Shown here in pieces: positions 1-5,669 of a DNA stretch of 5,669 nucleotides. The translations under genes were made by a program, and so were the position numbers. Source of the stretch: Candidatus Woesearchaeota archaeon (GTDB lineage: Archaea > Nanobdellota > Nanobdellia > Nanobdellales > Nanobdellaceae); assembly GCA_964468425.1 (NCBI GenBank), contig CAYXSZ010000091.1:1-5669 (forward strand), written 5' to 3'. The notes beneath the pieces are model-generated. The model searched no databases. It was not told the origin of the DNA and worked only from the letters and a program-made list of their open reading frames with translations. The stretch's first letter is position 1, and each line of letters opens with the position of its first letter.

Positions 1-259
1 GAATCCTCCGAACGATCCAAAAGTCTCTTGCAATGACTAAAATTCCTAGCATTACGATCCATGGAAGTATTGACCAGCCAATGCTTACTAAAATGTACAC
101 TGCAGACTTCGCAGACGCTTGGGGATTAGCCGCAATCGATAGAACGCCAAAGATGACTAATATAACGATAAACGAGATTATCGCTATTAGAACATCCTCC
201 AAAATCACCTCTAAACGCTCCATCGTTCTTCGAACCTTTTTAACCTGTTGCTCGACCAT
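1..259 (-). CDS. Membrane protein, N-terminal part; the gene continues beyond the left edge
   Basis: My own minus-strand translation: ATG at 259-257, in-frame TAA just upstream at 268-266, then 86 codons with no stop down to position 2. Sequence: MVEQQVKKVRRTMERLEVILEDVLIAIISFIVILVIFGVLSIAANPQASAKSAVYILVSIGWSILPWIVMLGILVIARDFWIVRRI. A charged N-terminus is followed by two clear hydrophobic helices. It has the same orientation as the adjacent membrane genes. It is missing from the ORF track because it is open-ended. The competing + ORF 33..269 is its antisense and is T/S/I-rich and unprotein-like. Confidence 0.55.
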   Translation of the reverse strand, partial: MVEQQVKKVRRTMERLEVILEDVLIAIISFIVILVIFGVLSIAANPQASAKSAVYILVSIGWSILPWIVMLGILVIARDFWIVRRI

Positions 260-281
260 TAACTTTTAATAGGTTTCTAGG

Positions 282-292
282 AATAAAAAGTT
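282..292 (-). terminator. Possible oligo-T termination signal after the third membrane paralog
   Basis: The minus strand reads TAA AAC TTTTT ATT directly after the stop at 295-293. Archaeal terminators are typically short oligo-T tracts. The tract lies in the palindrome AATAAAA-AG-TTTTATT (282-297). The signal is weak because the next gene starts only 33 nt further on. Confidence 0.2.
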
Positions 293-913
293 TTATTGTT
301 CGTTTTTTCCGATTTCATCCATTAAGTCTGCAAAGCTCTTTAAGAAATTCTTAGTTTTATCCTTTAAAGATGGTGTTCCTTGTTGATCAGATTCAGCTGT
401 GAGCCATTTGTACAGTATGTAAAACGCCACGAGGAGAACTACGAATACTATTAAACCAGTGTTGAAAAGAAGGTCGTAAATGAACTTCATGAAATCAAAA
501 GACATAGTTCCCGCTTGCTCTGGATTGGACATGTACGCGTAAAGGGCTGCGATCAGAACGGTTAATCCTAGAACTCCGCTAGCAGCATTCCTCCAAGTTT
601 CTCCAACACTATCCCCACTTCCTCCCCAAAATAGCGCGACAACCATCAAGACGAGTAGAAGAGCTAGCATTTCGTAGAAAAACATCGCAAAGAATCTCTG
701 AGTAAACAAAATAGTACCTATGTTCGCGATGTAGTACATGCTAAATCCAAAGGCAACCACTGCGGCGATTCTTTCATGTTTTCCAAACAAGTTAACCTTT
801 CTCAAGAGACCGTAACTCAGGGAAAATATCACTAAAAATGGTCCAAATAGTGTGGATATTCCATAATCGTTCAAAAGGTGCATGAAGAATGAGAATGAAA
901 TCTCGAAGGTCAT
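293..913 (-). CDS. Integral membrane protein, ~5 TM, paralog C of a tandem triplicated family of unknown function
   Basis: 206-aa ORF with an ATG start, 6 nt downstream of the paralog B stop. It shares the N-terminal TM1 motif G-x6-P-[WF]-[IL]-[LV]-[VI]-[YF]-[AS]-[IL]-x-[FY] (here YGISTLFGPFLVIFSLSY) and a colinear five-helix hydrophobicity pattern with the two upstream ORFs. It has a unique charged C-terminal tail (TAESDQQGTPSLKDKTKNFLKSFADLMDEIGKNEQ). Confidence 0.85.
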   Translation of the reverse strand: MTFEISFSFFMHLLNDYGISTLFGPFLVIFSLSYGLLRKVNLFGKHERIAAVVAFGFSMYYIANIGTILFTQRFFAMFFYEMLALLLVLMVVALFWGGSGDSVGETWRNAASGVLGLTVLIAALYAYMSNPEQAGTMSFDFMKFIYDLLFNTGLIVFVVLLVAFYILYKWLTAESDQQGTPSLKDKTKNFLKSFADLMDEIGKNEQ

Positions 914-919
914 GGGATT

Positions 920-1447
920 TTAGGAATTTTGATTTTCTCCGCCTTTGCCGATCCACCACAGCAACACGAAGAACATTATTATTATTACTACGATACCTAT
1001 TAAATCTGTTAGCACTCCGTGAAGGGCTGTTACTATATCAGAGACAGGACTTCCACTAACACCAACTCCTTCTGCAGCTAAGATAATTATCACTAAAAGA
1101 GCTATTAAATATATAAAACCTTTCATGTATCCCTGCATCTTAGAAGGCATTACCAAAAGTGCCATCGCAACAGCGAACAGGAACAGCGCAAGGATGAAAA
1201 CTGTGGCATTTGGAATTAGGAACAGTAACCATTTGATCAATTCCTGATGCGCTATCGCCATCAACGCGAATCCGAATGAGAACAAAGCATGAAGCTTTTT
1301 ACCTGTTTTATCGTTATTGTCTTTGGTAAGTAGTCCGCTAGACTCCAAGAGCAAGAAGATTAACGAGTAAATCAAGATAAATGGAATAAATATGGAAAAA
1401 ACCCCAATGTTCGCGAATTGCTGGATAGCAGTTTCGTAAAGAGTCAT
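920..1447 (-). CDS. Integral membrane protein, ~5 TM, paralog B of the tandem triplicated family
   Basis: 175-aa ORF. Its ATG overlaps the TGA of paralog A in an ATGA overlap (1447-1444), which suggests translational coupling. TM1 motif IGVFSIFIPFILIYSLIF. The last helix ends in LLWWIGK, matching IVWWTVR in paralog A. Confidence 0.85.
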   Translation of the reverse strand: MTLYETAIQQFANIGVFSIFIPFILIYSLIFLLLESSGLLTKDNNDKTGKKLHALFSFGFALMAIAHQELIKWLLFLIPNATVFILALFLFAVAMALLVMPSKMQGYMKGFIYLIALLVIIILAAEGVGVSGSPVSDIVTALHGVLTDLIGIVVIIIMFFVLLWWIGKGGENQNS

Positions 1448-2043
1448 TGTTGAGTACTATTATTACTCTGTTCTCGCCGTTTTTCCTTAGGCTCTCTCAC
1501 GGTCCACCAGACTATCAATCCAAAGAAAGCTAGGATTATAGCTGCTTCTACAATCTCTTTATTTTCATCAAGAAACGATTGCCAATCGATGCCAGTTCCT
1601 CCACCAGACAAGAATCCAAAGTAGTTCAGGAGCACTAAAATGAATATTATTGAAGCTGGAATAGCTAAAAACTTTTTGTATTTAGTATAAAGGGTATCTT
1701 GACCTGTAACTGCACCTTCTGGGAGGGTGAAAGCTGCGATTACAATGATTAAACAAACCACTATTAAAATGAATAAGGCGAAGAGGGGTACTATGTTTCG
1801 AATGTTTGTAACAGCTTGATAGGATCCTATTACGAGAGAAGCAACTGAAAGAGCTACTAAAGATGATAAAGTTCTTGCGTTTTTCGCAGCTTCCTTGTTT
1901 GATGTATCAAATGGATTTCCAAAAATTTGAGTTCGAAGAAGAATTCCAAAGGTTATAGCATAAACAAGTATCCACGGAAGTATTATGTTAAAAAATCCAA
2001 ACTTGTCCAGAAGTGCGAGCATTCCTTCGTAAACTGTAACCAT
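1444..2043 (-). CDS. Integral membrane protein, ~5 TM, paralog A of the tandem triplicated family
   Basis: 199-aa ORF with an ATG start. TM1 motif FGFFNIILPWILVYAITF. There are five hydrophobic segments and a basic C-terminal tail (REPKEKRREQSNNSTQQ). Confidence 0.85.
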   Translation of the reverse strand: MVTVYEGMLALLDKFGFFNIILPWILVYAITFGILLRTQIFGNPFDTSNKEAAKNARTLSSLVALSVASLVIGSYQAVTNIRNIVPLFALFILIVVCLIIVIAAFTLPEGAVTGQDTLYTKYKKFLAIPASIIFILVLLNYFGFLSGGGTGIDWQSFLDENKEIVEAAIILAFFGLIVWWTVREPKEKRREQSNNSTQQ

Positions 2044-2066
2044 ATTACTTAATTAGTCTGTGAAGG

Positions 2067-2074
2067 TATAAAAA
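2067..2074 (-). promoter_or_regulatory. Candidate TATA box for a near-leaderless transcript of the membrane-gene cluster
   Basis: The minus strand reads TAA-TTATTTTTATACC. The TTTTTATA sequence is centred about 27 nt upstream of the ATG at 2043, inside the 34-nt gap after the ferredoxin stop. That spacing is typical for archaeal TATA-to-TSS distance. Confidence 0.35.
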
Positions 2075-2077
2075 TAA

Positions 2078-2284
2078 TTACTCTTCGATGATCTCGAGAA
2101 CGATGGCTCCGCTCGGACAAGACCTCGCAGCTTTGAGAACTAGTTCGCGCTCTTCTTCGTTATCGACAACCTTCTTTAATTCCTTCGCCTTGTCTCCATC
2201 TAATCTAAACAATTTATCAGAAATTAGAACGCAAGCTCCGCATCCAATGCACTTATCTTTATCAACGTAAAAAAAGACTTTCAC
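2078..2284 (-). CDS. Single-cluster [4Fe-4S]-type ferredoxin (Pyrococcus/Thermotoga small ferredoxin type), copy 2
   Basis: Contains CIGCGAC...SCPSGAI, i.e. CxxCxxC plus a distal CP, with exactly four Cys. It is colinear with copy 1. I place the start at GTG 2284-2282, giving (M)KVFFYVDKDKC, parallel to MAKVRVDKEKC in copy 1 (68 aa). The track ORF (2078..2326) begins at a TTG, adds an unmatched 14-aa extension (MPRWGYRNRGIILS) and overlaps copy 1 by 34 nt. The family call is firm; the start codon is uncertain. Confidence 0.8.
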   Translation of the reverse strand: MKVFFYVDKDKCIGCGACVLISDKLFRLDGDKAKELKKVVDNEEERELVLKAARSCPSGAIVLEIIEE

Positions 2285-2292
2285 GGAGAGGA

Positions 2293-2487
2293 TTATTCCT
2301 CTATTTCGATAGCCCCAACGGGGCAAGCTTCCTTAGCCTCTTTTACCTTCTCGAGAAGCTCTCCCTCCACATCTTCTACCTTAACTGAAGATTTATTAGA
2401 TGAATCTAGCTCGAAAACTTCTGGAGCGAGCGCGACACAAGCACCACACCCTACACACTTTTCCTTATCAACTCGTACCTTCGCCAT
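2293..2487 (-). CDS. Single-cluster [4Fe-4S]-type ferredoxin, copy 1
   Basis: MAKVRVDKEKCVGCGACVALAPEVFELD...EACPVGAIEIEE, 64 aa with four Cys. It closely resembles the ~60-66 aa monocluster ferredoxins of Thermotoga and Pyrococcus in length and motif order. The track start at 2508 is a TTG; the ATG at 2487-2485 gives the canonical N-terminus. Confidence 0.9.
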   Translation of the reverse strand: MAKVRVDKEKCVGCGACVALAPEVFELDSSNKSSVKVEDVEGELLEKVKEAKEACPVGAIEIEE

Positions 2488-2512
2488 AATTATTATTGAG
2501 TATCGCAAACCT

Positions 2513-3016
2513 TTAAGTTATATTCGTTTTTCGCAAAACACTACTTACAGCTCGTCTAACTTTGTTATAAACATCCCACCAATCATCGAGCCAAATGTAG
2601 CTCGGAACCAAGTGAAGAAACTTTCTGTGAACAACGGAAATTACATTGCAATTTTCTTTCAGGATTTTCTCGACAAGTTCTTTGAACTTATCTGAGTAGA
2701 ACTCCATCGGACCGATCTCGTCAAGGACCAAGATTTTATCTTTTCGAAAATCTTTTAAAAACCTCTCAGAGAACCTGTCCAAAACGTCTTTCCGAACAAA
2801 GTATTTTCCGACTCTATAAGGAGTTCTCAGCTCTTCGTGAGCTAAAATCTCGTTTTCTCCCCATGTTGAAACAATCCTGAAACCAGATCTTTTTTTGTTT
2901 TCTTTAATCTCTTCAACCCAAAATCCGAAAAAGTTGTCTAGCCCAAACTCGCTTATTAATTTTTTAATTATGGTAGTTTTTCCCATTCGCGGCATGCCCG
3001 ATATGAAGATCTTCAT
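2513..3016 (-). CDS. THEP1-type nucleoside-triphosphatase (NTPase_1 family P-loop NTPase)
   Basis: 167 aa. Walker A is GMPRMGKT (residues 7-14) and Walker B is ILVLDEIGPME. The family-typical blocks are present in the same order as the Aquifex/Methanocaldococcus THEP1 proteins: GFWVEEI, KRSGFRIV, RVGKYFV, KFKELVEKIL. ATG start. Confidence 0.9.
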   Translation of the reverse strand: MKIFISGMPRMGKTTIIKKLISEFGLDNFFGFWVEEIKENKKRSGFRIVSTWGENEILAHEELRTPYRVGKYFVRKDVLDRFSERFLKDFRKDKILVLDEIGPMEFYSDKFKELVEKILKENCNVISVVHRKFLHLVPSYIWLDDWWDVYNKVRRAVSSVLRKTNIT

Positions 3017-3040
3017 AAGAGTATTATCGTACGATGAAGC

Positions 3041-3048
3041 ATATATTT
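3041..3048 (-). promoter_or_regulatory. Candidate TATA box for the NTPase-ferredoxin unit
   Basis: The minus strand reads AAATATAT, centred about 28 nt upstream of the ATG at 3016. This implies a near-leaderless mRNA. No SD-like sequence is present. Confidence 0.35.
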
Positions 3049-3255
3049 GTATTCAACGCTGCGCACAGGCTGGTGAAGAGCATCTTTTTCTGAAAAATAA
3101 ATTTACAACAGTTAAATTCTGTTTTTGGAACACATTCAAGCGAAAGCTATTCTATACTGCGAAAACATAAGTGAAATCTCAGTTAAAGTAGACTATCAAG
3201 AACTCCTGGTAACGGTTTTAAATATTATTTACGAGCAAACCATTGCTTTTTCAAG

Positions 3256-3288
3256 TAAGCGCAGCATTATTATGTATCTCTGTGCTTA
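3256..3288 (+). other. Hairpin in the long spacer (9-bp stem, 15-nt loop)
   Basis: TAAGCGCAG (3256-3264) pairs with CTGTGCTTA (3280-3288). The one G-U pair (3261/3283) would be an A-C mismatch on the other strand, which mildly favours a + strand RNA. An A/T-rich TATA-like block (TTTTAAATATTATTT, 3216-3230) lies about 25-35 nt upstream. Confidence 0.3.
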
Positions 3289-3342
3289 GCAAGTAAAAAT
3301 AGATTTCAAAACCAGGTTACTTTCGTTAATGAAGGCTCTAAA

Positions 3343-3366
3343 GTTAGTGGAGTAAAAATCACTAAC
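3343..3366. other. Perfect 7-bp hairpin in the long spacer (10-nt loop)
   Basis: GTTAGTG (3343-3349) pairs with CACTAAC (3360-3366). On the minus strand two G-U pairs extend the stem to 9 bp, and the loop carries TTTTT. Confidence 0.3.
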
Positions 3367-3442
3367 CCGTATTACAAGATCAGCGATCCCTTTAAAGATA
3401 GATTCGAGGAAGACCTTTAATGGTACTTAGGCGGCTCACGAG

Positions 3443-3474
3443 TTTATTATTCATAAAAAGATATTTTAAATATC
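3443..3474 (+). promoter_or_regulatory. A/T-rich promoter region of the Cas4-like operon with an embedded 15-nt perfect palindrome
   Basis: TATA candidates are TTTATTATT (3443-3451, centre ~34 nt from the ATG) and ATAAAAAG (3453-3460, ~25 nt from the ATG). The palindrome GATATTT-T-AAATATC (3460-3474) lies between the TATA region and the start codon at 3481, the usual position of archaeal repressor operators. Confidence 0.35.
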
Positions 3475-3480
3475 AACTTT

Positions 3481-4299
3481 ATGATCTACGTTCGAGTCAC
3501 GGATCTCAACGACTACTTGTTTTGTCCCCGGAAGGTTTATTTAAAGAGAGTTCTTGGTTTGAAGGAAGAAAGAGGCTTCGAAGCGATCTTTGGAAGCCTG
3601 ATTCACGAGATATTCGATAGACTTAACGAATGCGAAGAAGAGATTGTTTATCAAATCGACGATGATTACCCCTTCGATTACATCCTCAACCTCTATGAAG
3701 ATACAGCCATTTCGATTGCGAATGAGGTGATAAACAATTTCTCGGAAGAGATCAAGGAACTTCAAGTAGATCGAGATTACTTGCTCCTCAAGATCAAAAA
3801 GCACATTAGTGAGGAACTTTGGGAGCGTGCTAAAAATGTTTACGACGCCATCCAACGCTACAATGAGTATGGATTATTATTGTGGGATAAACTCGAACCC
3901 AAGATATATTCGGAGCTCGAACTTTTATCAGACACTCTAAAAATGGTTGGGAGAATTGATAGAGCCGAATTCTACTCTGAAAGGATAGTACCAGTTGAAA
4001 TCAAATCTGGAAGGTTTTCCAAGAGTCATTTGCTGCAACTTCACGCCTACGCGCTTCTCTTGAAGCAAAACTATCCAAAGTATCACATAGACTGGGGAGT
4101 TATATACTACACTAGTTCCAAGCGTAAGAAGGAGGTAAAATTCTCTAACAAGCTCTACGACAAAGTAATATCGCTTCGCGACGAGATTTTAAAGATCATA
4201 GAATCCGAAACGGACCCAGGTCCTTGCTCGAATTTCAACAAATGTAAAAAATGCGCTCTTCGGGAGTACTGCAAGAAGTTAAATACTTCAAAAAACTAA
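3481..4299 (+). CDS. Cas4/DUF83-family PD-(D/E)xK nuclease with a 4-Cys Fe-S cluster site; stand-alone, with no cas neighbours in the window
   Basis: 272 aa. The N-terminal VTDLNDYLFCPRKVYL carries C15. The remaining motifs are GSLIHE (H42), GRID (D160), EIK (E173/K175), QLHAY (Q186/Y190), and the C-terminal CKKCALREYC (C255-x2-C258-x5-C264) with an extra C249. This is the full Cas4 motif set in canonical order. Confidence 0.85.
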   Translation: MIYVRVTDLNDYLFCPRKVYLKRVLGLKEERGFEAIFGSLIHEIFDRLNECEEEIVYQIDDDYPFDYILNLYEDTAISIANEVINNFSEEIKELQVDRDYLLLKIKKHISEELWERAKNVYDAIQRYNEYGLLLWDKLEPKIYSELELLSDTLKMVGRIDRAEFYSERIVPVEIKSGRFSKSHLLQLHAYALLLKQNYPKYHIDWGVIYYTSSKRKKEVKFSNKLYDKVISLRDEILKIIESETDPGPCSNFNKCKKCALREYCKKLNTSKN

Positions 4300-4306
4300 G
4301 AACTTT

Positions 4307-4675
4307 ATGGAGGTTGAAGGAAGAGTGGAAGCTGTAAGCTACAAGAACAAGGGAATCAAGGTCAACGGAAGATGGTACAATGTTCCAGAAGACATGTTGA
4401 AACAGATTCAAAAGAATCATCGAGTAAAGCTCTTCATAGATGACTTTGGAAATGTCCTCGAGGTGGAAGTTCTGGGTTACGAAGAGCAAATCGACAAGGA
4501 TCTCAAAATCGAAGCCTTGAGAGCGTCGATAGAAATTTTAAAGCTAAACTTTCAGTTTGGACATCCCTACGATTTAGTTCCAGCTTCAGAGCTAAAAAAT
4601 TTCGAGAAGCAAGTCGATACTTCATTAAAACTTCTTGAAAAAACGTACAAACGGGTACTTAAATTGATAAAATGA
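4307..4675 (+). CDS. Hypothetical protein; the N-terminal ~57 aa look like a small beta-barrel (OB/SH3-like) and the C-terminal half is helical
   Basis: 122-aa ORF with an ATG 7 nt after the Cas4-like stop. Its TGA overlaps the next ATG (ATGA at 4672-4675). The N-terminal pattern VEGRVEAVSYKNKGIKVNGRWYNVPEDM...HRVKLFIDDFGNVLEVEVL alternates short beta-like segments, as in small OB-fold nucleic-acid binders. I recognise no family; the fold call is inference. Confidence 0.7.
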   Translation: MEVEGRVEAVSYKNKGIKVNGRWYNVPEDMLKQIQKNHRVKLFIDDFGNVLEVEVLGYEEQIDKDLKIEALRASIEILKLNFQFGHPYDLVPASELKNFEKQVDTSLKLLEKTYKRVLKLIK

Positions 4676-5463
4676 AAATAGAACTTGATGTTCGCTTGTC
4701 TCCCTTCGAAAATGCCGCGAAGTACTACGAAAAGGCTAAAAAGCTCAAACAAAAGTTGGAGAGTCTAAAGCTCCAAATTGAGGAGACCAAGAAAAAGTTA
4801 GAAAATGTAAATCTAGAAATAGAGAAAGAAAGAAAAAAACTTGAGAAAAAGAGAAGGGTAAAATGGTATGAAAAGTTTAGATGGTTTTTTACCTCAAATA
4901 ACTTTTTATTGGTTGCCGGAAAAGACGCTAGCTCGAATGAAGTCTTAATTAGAAAGTACCTTGAAAAAAACGATTTAGTCTTTCACGCAGATATAAAGGG
5001 TTCTCCTTTTGGAATTCTCAAAAATGGGAAAGATGCTAACGAGGTAGACATAAAAGAGGCAGCTCAATTCGTAGCTAGTTATTCAAGGGCGTGGAAACAA
5101 AAGCTAGGAGCGATCGAAGTTTATTACATATATCCCGACCAAGTTTCCAAAAGAGCTCCAGCGGGAGAGTACTTACCGAGAGGATCTTTTATGATTTACG
5201 GAGAGAAAAATTATGTGACAATGGAGCTAAAAGTTGCTATTGGGGTAGATCAAGAAGGAAACGTAATCCCAGGAGTTCCTTCGTCCGTAGAACGAAAATC
5301 TAAGAAATATGTTATCTTAATTCCAGGGGATATCAGACCAAGCGAAATAGCCAAGGAGATTTCAAAATTTCTCGAAGCGGATTTAGAAGATATTCAAAGG
5401 TTCGTTCCTGGAGAAGCCCGGATTATTTCAAAGATCGATAAGCTTATAAATGCAAAGTTATGA
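4672..5463 (+). CDS. NFACT-family protein (RqcH/Rqc2/FbpA family), C-terminal half only: coiled-coil helix + NFACT-R (DUF814) + NFACT-C
   Basis: 263 aa. IELDVRLSPFENAAKYYEKAKKLK matches the conserved LD..LS..ENA..YF.KYKK segment at the start of the second coiled-coil helix of full-length family members. KWYEKFRWFFTSNNFLLVAGKDASSNEVLIRKYLEKNDLVFHADIKGSPFGILK is the NFACT-R/DUF814 core. APAGEYLPRGSFMIYGEKNYV...AIGV...IPGD is the archaeal/eukaryotic NFACT-C region. An in-frame TAA at 4660-4662 prevents any upstream extension. Confidence 0.9.
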   Translation: MKIELDVRLSPFENAAKYYEKAKKLKQKLESLKLQIEETKKKLENVNLEIEKERKKLEKKRRVKWYEKFRWFFTSNNFLLVAGKDASSNEVLIRKYLEKNDLVFHADIKGSPFGILKNGKDANEVDIKEAAQFVASYSRAWKQKLGAIEVYYIYPDQVSKRAPAGEYLPRGSFMIYGEKNYVTMELKVAIGVDQEGNVIPGVPSSVERKSKKYVILIPGDIRPSEIAKEISKFLEADLEDIQRFVPGEARIISKIDKLINAKL

Positions 5464-5508
5464 TTCATCGTTAGTAGTCAAAATTCTATACGCGTTGGCA
5501 AATACAAC

Positions 5509-5525
5509 CGAAAATTTTTTAAATA
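5509..5525 (+). promoter_or_regulatory. BRE + TATA promoter for the downstream secreted-protein gene
   Basis: CGAAAA (5509-5514, BRE-like) is immediately followed by TTTTTTAAATA (5515-5525). The TATA centre is about 24 nt upstream of the ATG at 5546, implying a leaderless mRNA. The T6 run could also terminate the upstream operon. Confidence 0.45.
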
Positions 5526-5545
5526 CCTACACCAAATAGTAGTGT

Positions 5546-5669
5546 ATGGTGTCCCTCAGAAAGATCCTACCCCTTGTAGGTATAGTAGCATTGTTAGCTA
5601 GCGTCTTTGCACAAACAGAGCCAACGGTGAGTTTAAAGTTCGTAGAATATCCACAATACATTACTCCTA
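5546..5669 (+). CDS. Secreted or extracellular protein, N-terminal part with a Sec-type signal peptide; the gene continues beyond the right edge
   Basis: My own translation: MVSLRKILPLVGIVALLASVFAQTEPTVSLKFVEYPQYITP. It has a basic n-region, a hydrophobic h-region and a VFA/QT cleavage-like site. It is open to the window end and sits behind a good promoter. It is absent from the ORF track because it has no stop. Confidence 0.6.
   Translation, partial: MVSLRKILPLVGIVALLASVFAQTEPTVSLKFVEYPQYITP

Follow-up and report, generated by a model that had tools for sequence, protein, structure and literature searches.

Does a Cas4-family nuclease that is encoded directly upstream of a piece of the ribosome-quality-control (RQC) factor RqcH act together with it, or do the two genes share little more than a place and a transcript in a compact archaeal genome? 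The question is raised by contig CAYXSZ010000091.1 of a Candidatus Woesearchaeota archaeon (NCBI GenBank assembly GCA_964468425.1; Nanobdellaceae in the GTDB lineage), positions 1 to 5,669 of the forward strand; this whole stretch of 5,669 nucleotides (nt) is termed the window. Three plus-strand genes follow each other closely here: a solo Cas4-family PD-(D/E)XK nuclease with a four-cysteine Fe-S site, recognized by profile matches (3481–4299; 272 amino acids, aa), a small lineage-restricted protein (4307–4675; 122 aa), and the C-terminal part of an archaeal RqcH (NFACT family) whose gene is split (4672–5463; 263 aa), recognized by its match to NF041120 RqcH_arch. The initial annotation had placed a 7-nt gap between the first two genes (4300–4306) and an ATGA stop/start overlap between the second and the third (4672–4675), and both coordinates are exactly correct. 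The best explanation, with a probability of roughly 0.55, is a lineage-specific housekeeping operon in which the solo Cas4 and the RqcH C-piece would be expressed together but have no direct mechanistic link. The new element is the strict, family-wide junction between Cas4 and the RqcH piece; the components and the split itself are of known kinds.

Identity of the Cas4 nuclease and the RqcH piece

The product of the first gene scored 105.8 bits against TIGR00372 cas4 (cutoff 65) and 78.2 bits against PF01930 (E 1e-21; cutoff 22.7), and matched PDDEXK_1 at E 2e-20; its relatives in the PDB are Cas4 or Cas4-Cas1 proteins (7mi4, 4r5q, 8d3l). The RecB-type motifs (D, ExK, QxxxY) and the four Fe-S cysteines are complete, as first annotated, and the residues concerned (C15, D160, E173, K175, Q186, Y190, C255, C258, C264) are invariant across 10 orthologs; judged by these active-site residues, the protein is an intact Fe-S PD-(D/E)XK nuclease. 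In the window, neither cas1, cas2 and CRISPR repeats, whose absence had already been noted, nor tRNA or Rfam RNA genes were found; no related locus contained cas1/cas2 or a CRISPR array, and no cas genes adjoined the Cas4 orthologs at any locus that could be judged. The window Cas4 is therefore a solo Cas4, and the concern that its orthologs might normally reside in cas operons has not been borne out. Such genes have company: in the genome of strain YN1, Cas4 is the only cas gene and CRISPR is absent (PMC11420986), and solo Cas4 proteins have been described for most DPANN archaea and are widespread and vertically inherited in archaea (PMC5704561).

Some DPANN solo Cas4 genes adjoin restriction-modification genes, and defence roles have been suggested for them (Hudaiberdiev et al., 2017; PMC5704561). 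This precedent, together with the match of PADLOC Cas4 models to the first gene, could speak for an anti-virus defence module built around Cas4; yet such a module is very improbable. The window Cas4 matches Cas4 models only in the PADLOC scan, which returned nothing for genes 2 and 3; the genes nearby have housekeeping functions and include neither restriction-modification genes nor cas or CRISPR genes; Cas4 sits at the same place in every clade genome examined, unlike genes of defence islands; and the phage collection contained no relatives. A viral or mobile origin was considered separately and rejected: neither Cas4 nor the small protein gave a phage match in tblastn, PHROG had no match for genes 2 and 3, and fold matches in BFVD were not significant.

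The third gene matched NF041120 RqcH_arch over positions 381–644 of 645 (E 1e-96); its score of 324.8 bits falls under the full-length equivalog cutoff of 400, as expected for 41% of the protein. Its AlphaFold2 model (mean predicted local distance difference test score, pLDDT, 89.8) begins with a lone 48-residue helix (aa 11–58; 4702–4845), located from the modelled secondary structure and corresponding to Pfam NFACT_N positions 369–415; the NFACT-R (DUF814) domain follows (aa 68–177; 4873–5202) and is complete, with PF05670 positions 1–112 of 112 matched at E 3.9e-36. The remainder (aa 178–263; 5203–5460) is assigned to the archaeal RqcH C-terminal domain; it is well folded in the model and covered by the RqcH_arch profile, to position 644, and the NEMF fold match alone; the Pfam NFACT-C model does not match the gene 3 product, to which the initial annotation had assigned NFACT-R and NFACT-C domains. 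The best Foldseek matches of the model are NEMF, Rqc2 and RqcH on large subunits (E 3e-14), and a profile match extends over NEMF 461–645 (E 5e-47). The coiled coil of RqcH is represented by one of its two helices, the second; the NFACT-N and HhH domains are missing, and the open reading frame (ORF) begins at model position 381.

The modelled fold also matches CCDC25-DNA complexes (E ~6e-6). CCDC25 is a solo NFACT-R protein that binds double-stranded DNA, and by this likeness the NFACT-R piece might deliver Cas4, by family a DNA-end nuclease, to the ends of DNA undergoing repair or recombination; the conserved adjacency of the two genes would suit such a DNA-directed pair. This arrangement is unlikely, however: the match to RqcH/NEMF is far better than that to CCDC25 (fold E 3e-14; RqcH_arch E 1e-96), gene 3 retains the RqcH coiled-coil helix and C-terminal domain, and the same piece adjoins ribosomal stalk genes in other DPANN archaea.

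C-pieces of 250–280 aa that start at model positions 379–381 occur in Nanopusillaceae, Woesearchaeota and Altiarchaeota, where this half is the standard form of RqcH. No NFACT-N was found within 10 kb of any C-piece; the NFACT-N profile search instead recovered separate N-only genes, on contigs of their own, that encode 348–366 aa and cover RqcH_arch positions 1 to 338–377. Since these N-only genes end where the C-pieces begin, the half NFACT represents the rear part of an RqcH encoded by two genes; the alignment positions of the two pieces complement each other cleanly and put the break at the coiled-coil tip. The half-NFACT module of the initial annotation is thus upheld in its NFACT-R domain but not as a novel module, given N-pieces that end near position 375. 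From the model, the lone 48-residue helix would be expected to need a counterpart provided in trans, for which the first of the two coiled-coil helices, carried by the N-piece, is the simplest candidate. The NFACT-N profile search returned no N-only protein labelled as Nanopusillaceae, an absence that means little with 8000 word-sharing candidates scored; the five N-only proteins traced to contigs lay on other low-GC or unrelated contigs. In one Bathyarchaeia genome, RqcH appears as a 395-aa N-terminal ORF (8813–10000 of locus L045) and a 184-aa C-terminal ORF (10289–10843), 289 nt apart; a frameshift, an assembly error and an independent split are all possible origins of this pair.

As COG1293, the NFACT family formerly bore the name [quoted passage not shown], and on this old name rests our equation of a split protein reported from nanoarchaea with RqcH/COG1293. 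The report, Table 1 of Podar et al. (2013; PMC3655853), lists a "predicted RNA-binding protein" that is divided at one common site, as NEQ438/506 in N. equitans and as Nst176/251 in Nst1.

Conservation and meaning of the Cas4-RqcH junction

The same genes are present on hot-spring contigs from ENA and JGI, and among named organisms the closest are Nanopusillus, Nanobsidianus stetteri (Nst1), Nanoclepta minutus, Nanobdella aerobiophila and strain YN1; the window accordingly derives from a nanoarchaeon of the Nanopusillaceae type. A genome scan with an alignment of RqcH C-halves, limited to one genome per species and the best 80 loci, placed a Cas4 ortholog directly upstream of the RqcH half at 13/13 Nanopusillaceae-type loci (ten from the scan and three contigs); the Nanobdella locus has the same arrangement. 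The reverse scan, with a Cas4 alignment against metagenome contigs, yielded 42 loci; the RqcH half followed Cas4 in all 29 with enough downstream DNA, in two further loci the contig breaks off inside the small gene or shortly behind it, and no locus had another gene there. Adjacency in related genomes, on which the first annotators had let their proposal hinge, was conserved at every locus examined. Among relatives, Cas4 and the RqcH half usually overlap by 10–17 nt; identity across lineages amounts to 40–50% for Cas4, 45–60% for the RqcH half, and 25–30% for the surface protein encoded next.

Clustering of the flanks distinguished three contexts. In context A, the genes divergent upstream encode three membrane proteins, ferredoxins and, at some loci, an NTPase; context B places the block inside an information-processing array (RpoE'-Spt4-Cas4-small-RqcH half-surface protein-S13-S4); and context C has TmcA divergent upstream and S13 downstream. 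All three share no more than Cas4, the small gene (which is optional), the RqcH half, and a protein of 500–645 aa. The latter is a surface protein, since its relatives bear a signal peptide and, at the C terminus, a transmembrane anchor, and it follows the RqcH piece in every context; in the window only the start of its gene is preserved (5546–5669, plus strand, truncated at the window end; translation MVSLRKILPLVGIVALLASVFAQ...). Surface proteins of this kind (for example L011 10802–12739) match no Pfam family and diverge fast.

The three genes are real and not chance ORFs, since homologs of the same length recur (E down to 1e-160). Their co-transcription, as proposed at the outset, is likely, since they lie on the same strand and a stop/start overlap or near-abutment is retained in all relatives; same strand, minimal spacing and an order conserved across rearranged genomes are all observed. 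An AT-rich, TATA-like stretch 10–38 nt before the Cas4 ATG (3443–3472, plus strand) reads as a putative archaeal promoter, which would leave the Cas4 transcript nearly leaderless; a sigma-70 promoter/terminator scan is not meaningful for archaeal DNA. Boxes resembling TTTATAAA also precede the Cas4 orthologs in context A; in context B, the Cas4 start overlaps the Spt4 stop. The tight coupling emphasized in the initial annotation describes the spacing well, but it is not special to this block, because overlapping genes are usual in genomes of this group; of the 18 pairs of same-strand neighbours in the Nanobdella locus, 11 overlap or have no more than 5 nt between them.

The small protein has no family match in Pfam, NCBIfam, PADLOC or PHROG; a word-indexed search found 14 homologs, and only 12 clusters were found among 1.84 billion representatives. 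Its AlphaFold2 model (pLDDT 84) predicts an N-terminal five-strand barrel resembling the oligonucleotide/oligosaccharide-binding (OB) fold, followed by two long helices, with weak Foldseek matches only (PilY2, RuvA domain I, aIF1A, RPA). The gene occurs in the window clade, in context B and in the Great Boiling Spring contigs. At each of these loci with visible neighbours, Cas4 immediately precedes it and, if the contig extends far enough, the RqcH piece comes next. The Nanoclepta, Nanopusillus, YN1 and Nanobdella loci lack the gene.

At the 70 other RqcH loci of the genome scan, comprising 35 other DPANN half-RqcH loci and full-length or fragmentary RqcH genes mostly of Bathyarchaeia, no Cas4 homolog was found within 10 kb at E up to 10; the link between Cas4 and RqcH is clade-specific. 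The RqcH halves of other DPANN archaea adjoin genes for L10, L11, L1, CRS1_YhbY, a 50S-binding GTPase or T2SSF. Among L018, L132 and 33 other DPANN loci, the C-piece often stands beside genes of the ribosomal stalk region (L10, L11, L1), of a CRS1_YhbY (CRM) protein or of a 50S-binding GTPase, and this translation context fits a ribosomal role; at L132, its start overlaps the L11 gene.

A nuclease acting in ribosome rescue is the alternative that the unbroken junction brings to mind. Cas4 might have been enlisted to work with the RqcH C-piece where 50S subunits are obstructed or ribosomes have stalled, cutting tRNA or mRNA in the manner of Vms1, Cue2 or SmrB, with the small OB-like protein as an accessory nucleic-acid binder; by analogy, Cas4 would take the place predicted for a different nuclease, the Mut7-C RNase, beside NFACT in other archaea. 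A Mut7-C PIN RNase has been predicted as the nuclease partner of archaeal NFACT, in the company of AMMECR1 (Burroughs and Aravind, 2014; PMC4075521); a Mut7-C/AMMECR1 neighbourhood was not seen among 103 neighbours of full-length RqcH (29 loci) or among 130 neighbours of the other half genes (35 loci). In the literature collection searched, no paper mentioned archaeal NFACT together with Cas4; the initial statement that no link between the two had been described was too strong in view of the predicted Mut7-C partner. The rescue alternative gains from the strict conservation of the junction across three flanking contexts, from the conserved overlap of stop and start, from the invariable position of the small gene, where present, between Cas4 and the RqcH piece, from the placement of the block among transcription and translation genes in context B, from the predicted nuclease partner of archaeal NFACT (PMC4075521), and from purifying selection on the Cas4 active site. 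It has to contend with the fact that characterised Cas4 proteins are DNA nucleases, and the family is not known to act on RNA; the operon does not include the N-piece of RqcH, which is the catalytically relevant one, none of the other examined loci of DPANN archaea and Bathyarchaeia shows the link, and the block includes a surface protein as well. On balance, ribosome rescue is a tentative alternative. More doubtful still is its most specific form, in which Cas4 would be the nuclease arm of RQC, produced in fixed ratio with the C-piece, docking on it, sometimes through the OB-like adaptor, and cutting tRNA or mRNA on large subunits.

Conserved gene order in itself gives no guarantee of shared function here, because the block also holds the unrelated surface protein. 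In a mirror-tree comparison, Cas4 and the RqcH piece correlate at r = 0.86, but the correlations of the surface protein are 0.98 and 0.89, and the comparison does not discriminate, because the surface protein correlates equally well or better. A functional reading of the junction is weakened because the split of RqcH is known, solo Cas4 is known, overlaps are normal, and a surface protein shares the block.

A housekeeping operon, the preferred explanation, would account for these observations as follows. The block of solo Cas4, optional small OB-like protein, RqcH C-piece and surface protein is conserved family-wide and probably forms a co-transcribed unit. Its confinement to one clade with the Cas4 link, and its place in an information-processing array in context B, also speak for this explanation. 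The RqcH C-piece would re-associate through its coiled coil with an N-piece encoded elsewhere that contributes NFACT-N, HhH and the first helix, and the assembled two-piece RqcH would serve as the usual 50S/peptidyl-tRNA ribosome-rescue factor. Cas4 would do what other archaeal solo Cas4 proteins do, most likely housekeeping DNA-end processing, and thus act on DNA and without direct coupling to RqcH. What maintains the linkage would be the compaction of the genome and the overlap of the reading frames, and not a dedicated nuclease-plus-NFACT machine.

Several points weigh against this explanation. The junction between Cas4 and the RqcH piece is unbroken at 18 genome or contig loci and at the 31 metagenome loci with any downstream DNA; its persistence through 40–50% Cas4 identity and three flanking contexts is usually a sign of functional linkage. 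The retained 10–17 nt stop/start overlap would permit translational coupling and a fixed stoichiometry, and, with Mut7-C in other archaea as the analogue, a recurring theme of a nuclease beside NFACT is conceivable. Finally, the contigs on which the N- and C-pieces were seen to be complementary come from other archaea.

The upstream region and its variants

The spacer between the NTPase gene and Cas4 (3017–3480) measures 464 nt, very long for such a compact genome. It contains no Rfam family and no tRNA, and its folding z-score is only -1.6. Two public contigs of the same organism hold an extra, relatively GC-rich segment of 67 nt (TCGGAGACGCGGAGGTCTCAAGACC...) that is absent from the window; the indel lies between 3313 and 3314 of the window, and the segment occupies 3314–3380 of L001. 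No copy of the segment was found elsewhere in 139 loci. Derivation of the spacer from a MazG-like gene that occupies this place in relatives was considered and rejected, as no remnant was found.

The adjoining gene on the minus strand (2513–3016) encodes a THEP1-type NTPase (PF03266 at E 3e-33; NF010248 at 140 bits against a cutoff of 156); it is divergent from Cas4 and present in only some relatives. A small MazG-like gene joins it in YN1-like genomes and in the Great Boiling Spring contigs (L138). Beyond the NTPase gene, and likewise on the minus strand, lie three paralogous membrane ORFs of ~175–206 aa without a family match (293–2043), followed by two single-cluster ferredoxin genes (2078–2508). 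The set of membrane ORFs and ferredoxins is conserved as a block at all examined loci of context A, which span the window and Nanobdella, and may represent an uncharacterised membrane and ferredoxin module. Comparison of window positions 913–1447 with 910–1446 of the public ENA contig L001 revealed a 1-nt indel, which gives the middle membrane ORF 175 aa versus 178 aa; because of this indel, the window is regarded as a third, slightly different copy of the locus.

Significance and comparison with known systems

Solo Cas4 occurs in ~90% of archaea, and the junction offers a modest, testable lead on its function outside CRISPR; it remains intact over deep divergence, and it may bear on how archaea release or degrade the substrates of ribosome rescue. 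Two cultivated systems, YN1 and Nanobdella aerobiophila, are at hand. If Cas4 did turn out to be a nuclease arm of RQC, this would be the first cellular role for a solo Cas4, and an archaeal counterpart of Vms1, Cue2 or SmrB. If the link amounts to co-expression only, annotation still gains: the RqcH split is widespread in DPANN archaea, and the ~260-aa proteins annotated as "DUF814/NFACT RNA-binding" are C-pieces of split RqcH, to be paired with ~360-aa N-pieces.

The window Cas4 resembles the solo Cas4 proteins surveyed in archaea, and in DPANN archaea in particular, in belonging to COG1468/PF01930 with RecB motifs and four cysteines, and in its occurrence in a small-genome DPANN host without cas1/cas2 or CRISPR; it differs in its fixed position directly upstream of the RqcH C-piece, a context unmentioned in that survey, and in a ~95-aa insertion between the N-terminal cysteine motif and the RecB core (PMC5704561). 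Gene 3 shares with RqcH, Rqc2 and NEMF the second coiled-coil helix, the NFACT-R domain and, by profile and fold match, the C-terminal domain, with all family motifs, but lacks NFACT-N, HhH and the first coiled-coil helix, and scores 324.8 bits against the cutoff of 400. With eukaryotic solo NFACT-R proteins (CCDC25/Jlp2) it has in common a stand-alone NFACT-R domain with a coiled-coil segment and the fold match at E ~6e-6; CCDC25, in contrast, arose by partial duplication beside a full-length NEMF, whereas gene 3 is a piece of a gene and keeps the RqcH C-terminal domain.

The closest precedent for the split is the pair NEQ438/506 and Nst176/251 of Podar et al. (2013; PMC3655853): distant nanoarchaea encode this protein in two unlinked pieces, divided at one common site; the Nst1 locus (L007) has the same arrangement of Cas4 and C-piece as the window. 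That paper is silent on the Cas4 neighbour, and the split documented here reaches far wider, into Woesearchaeota and Altiarchaeota. The archaeal association of NFACT, Mut7-C and AMMECR1 (PMC4075521) is similar in that a nuclease gene is conserved beside an archaeal NFACT gene, but the nuclease of the window is a PD-(D/E)XK Fe-S Cas4 and not a PIN domain protein, and AMMECR1 is absent. To SmrB/MutS2, Cue2/NONU-1 and Vms1, the likeness is confined to the proposed role of a nuclease acting with the rescue machinery; these enzymes have Smr or eRF1-like folds, in contrast to the PD-(D/E)XK fold of Cas4, with which they share no homology.

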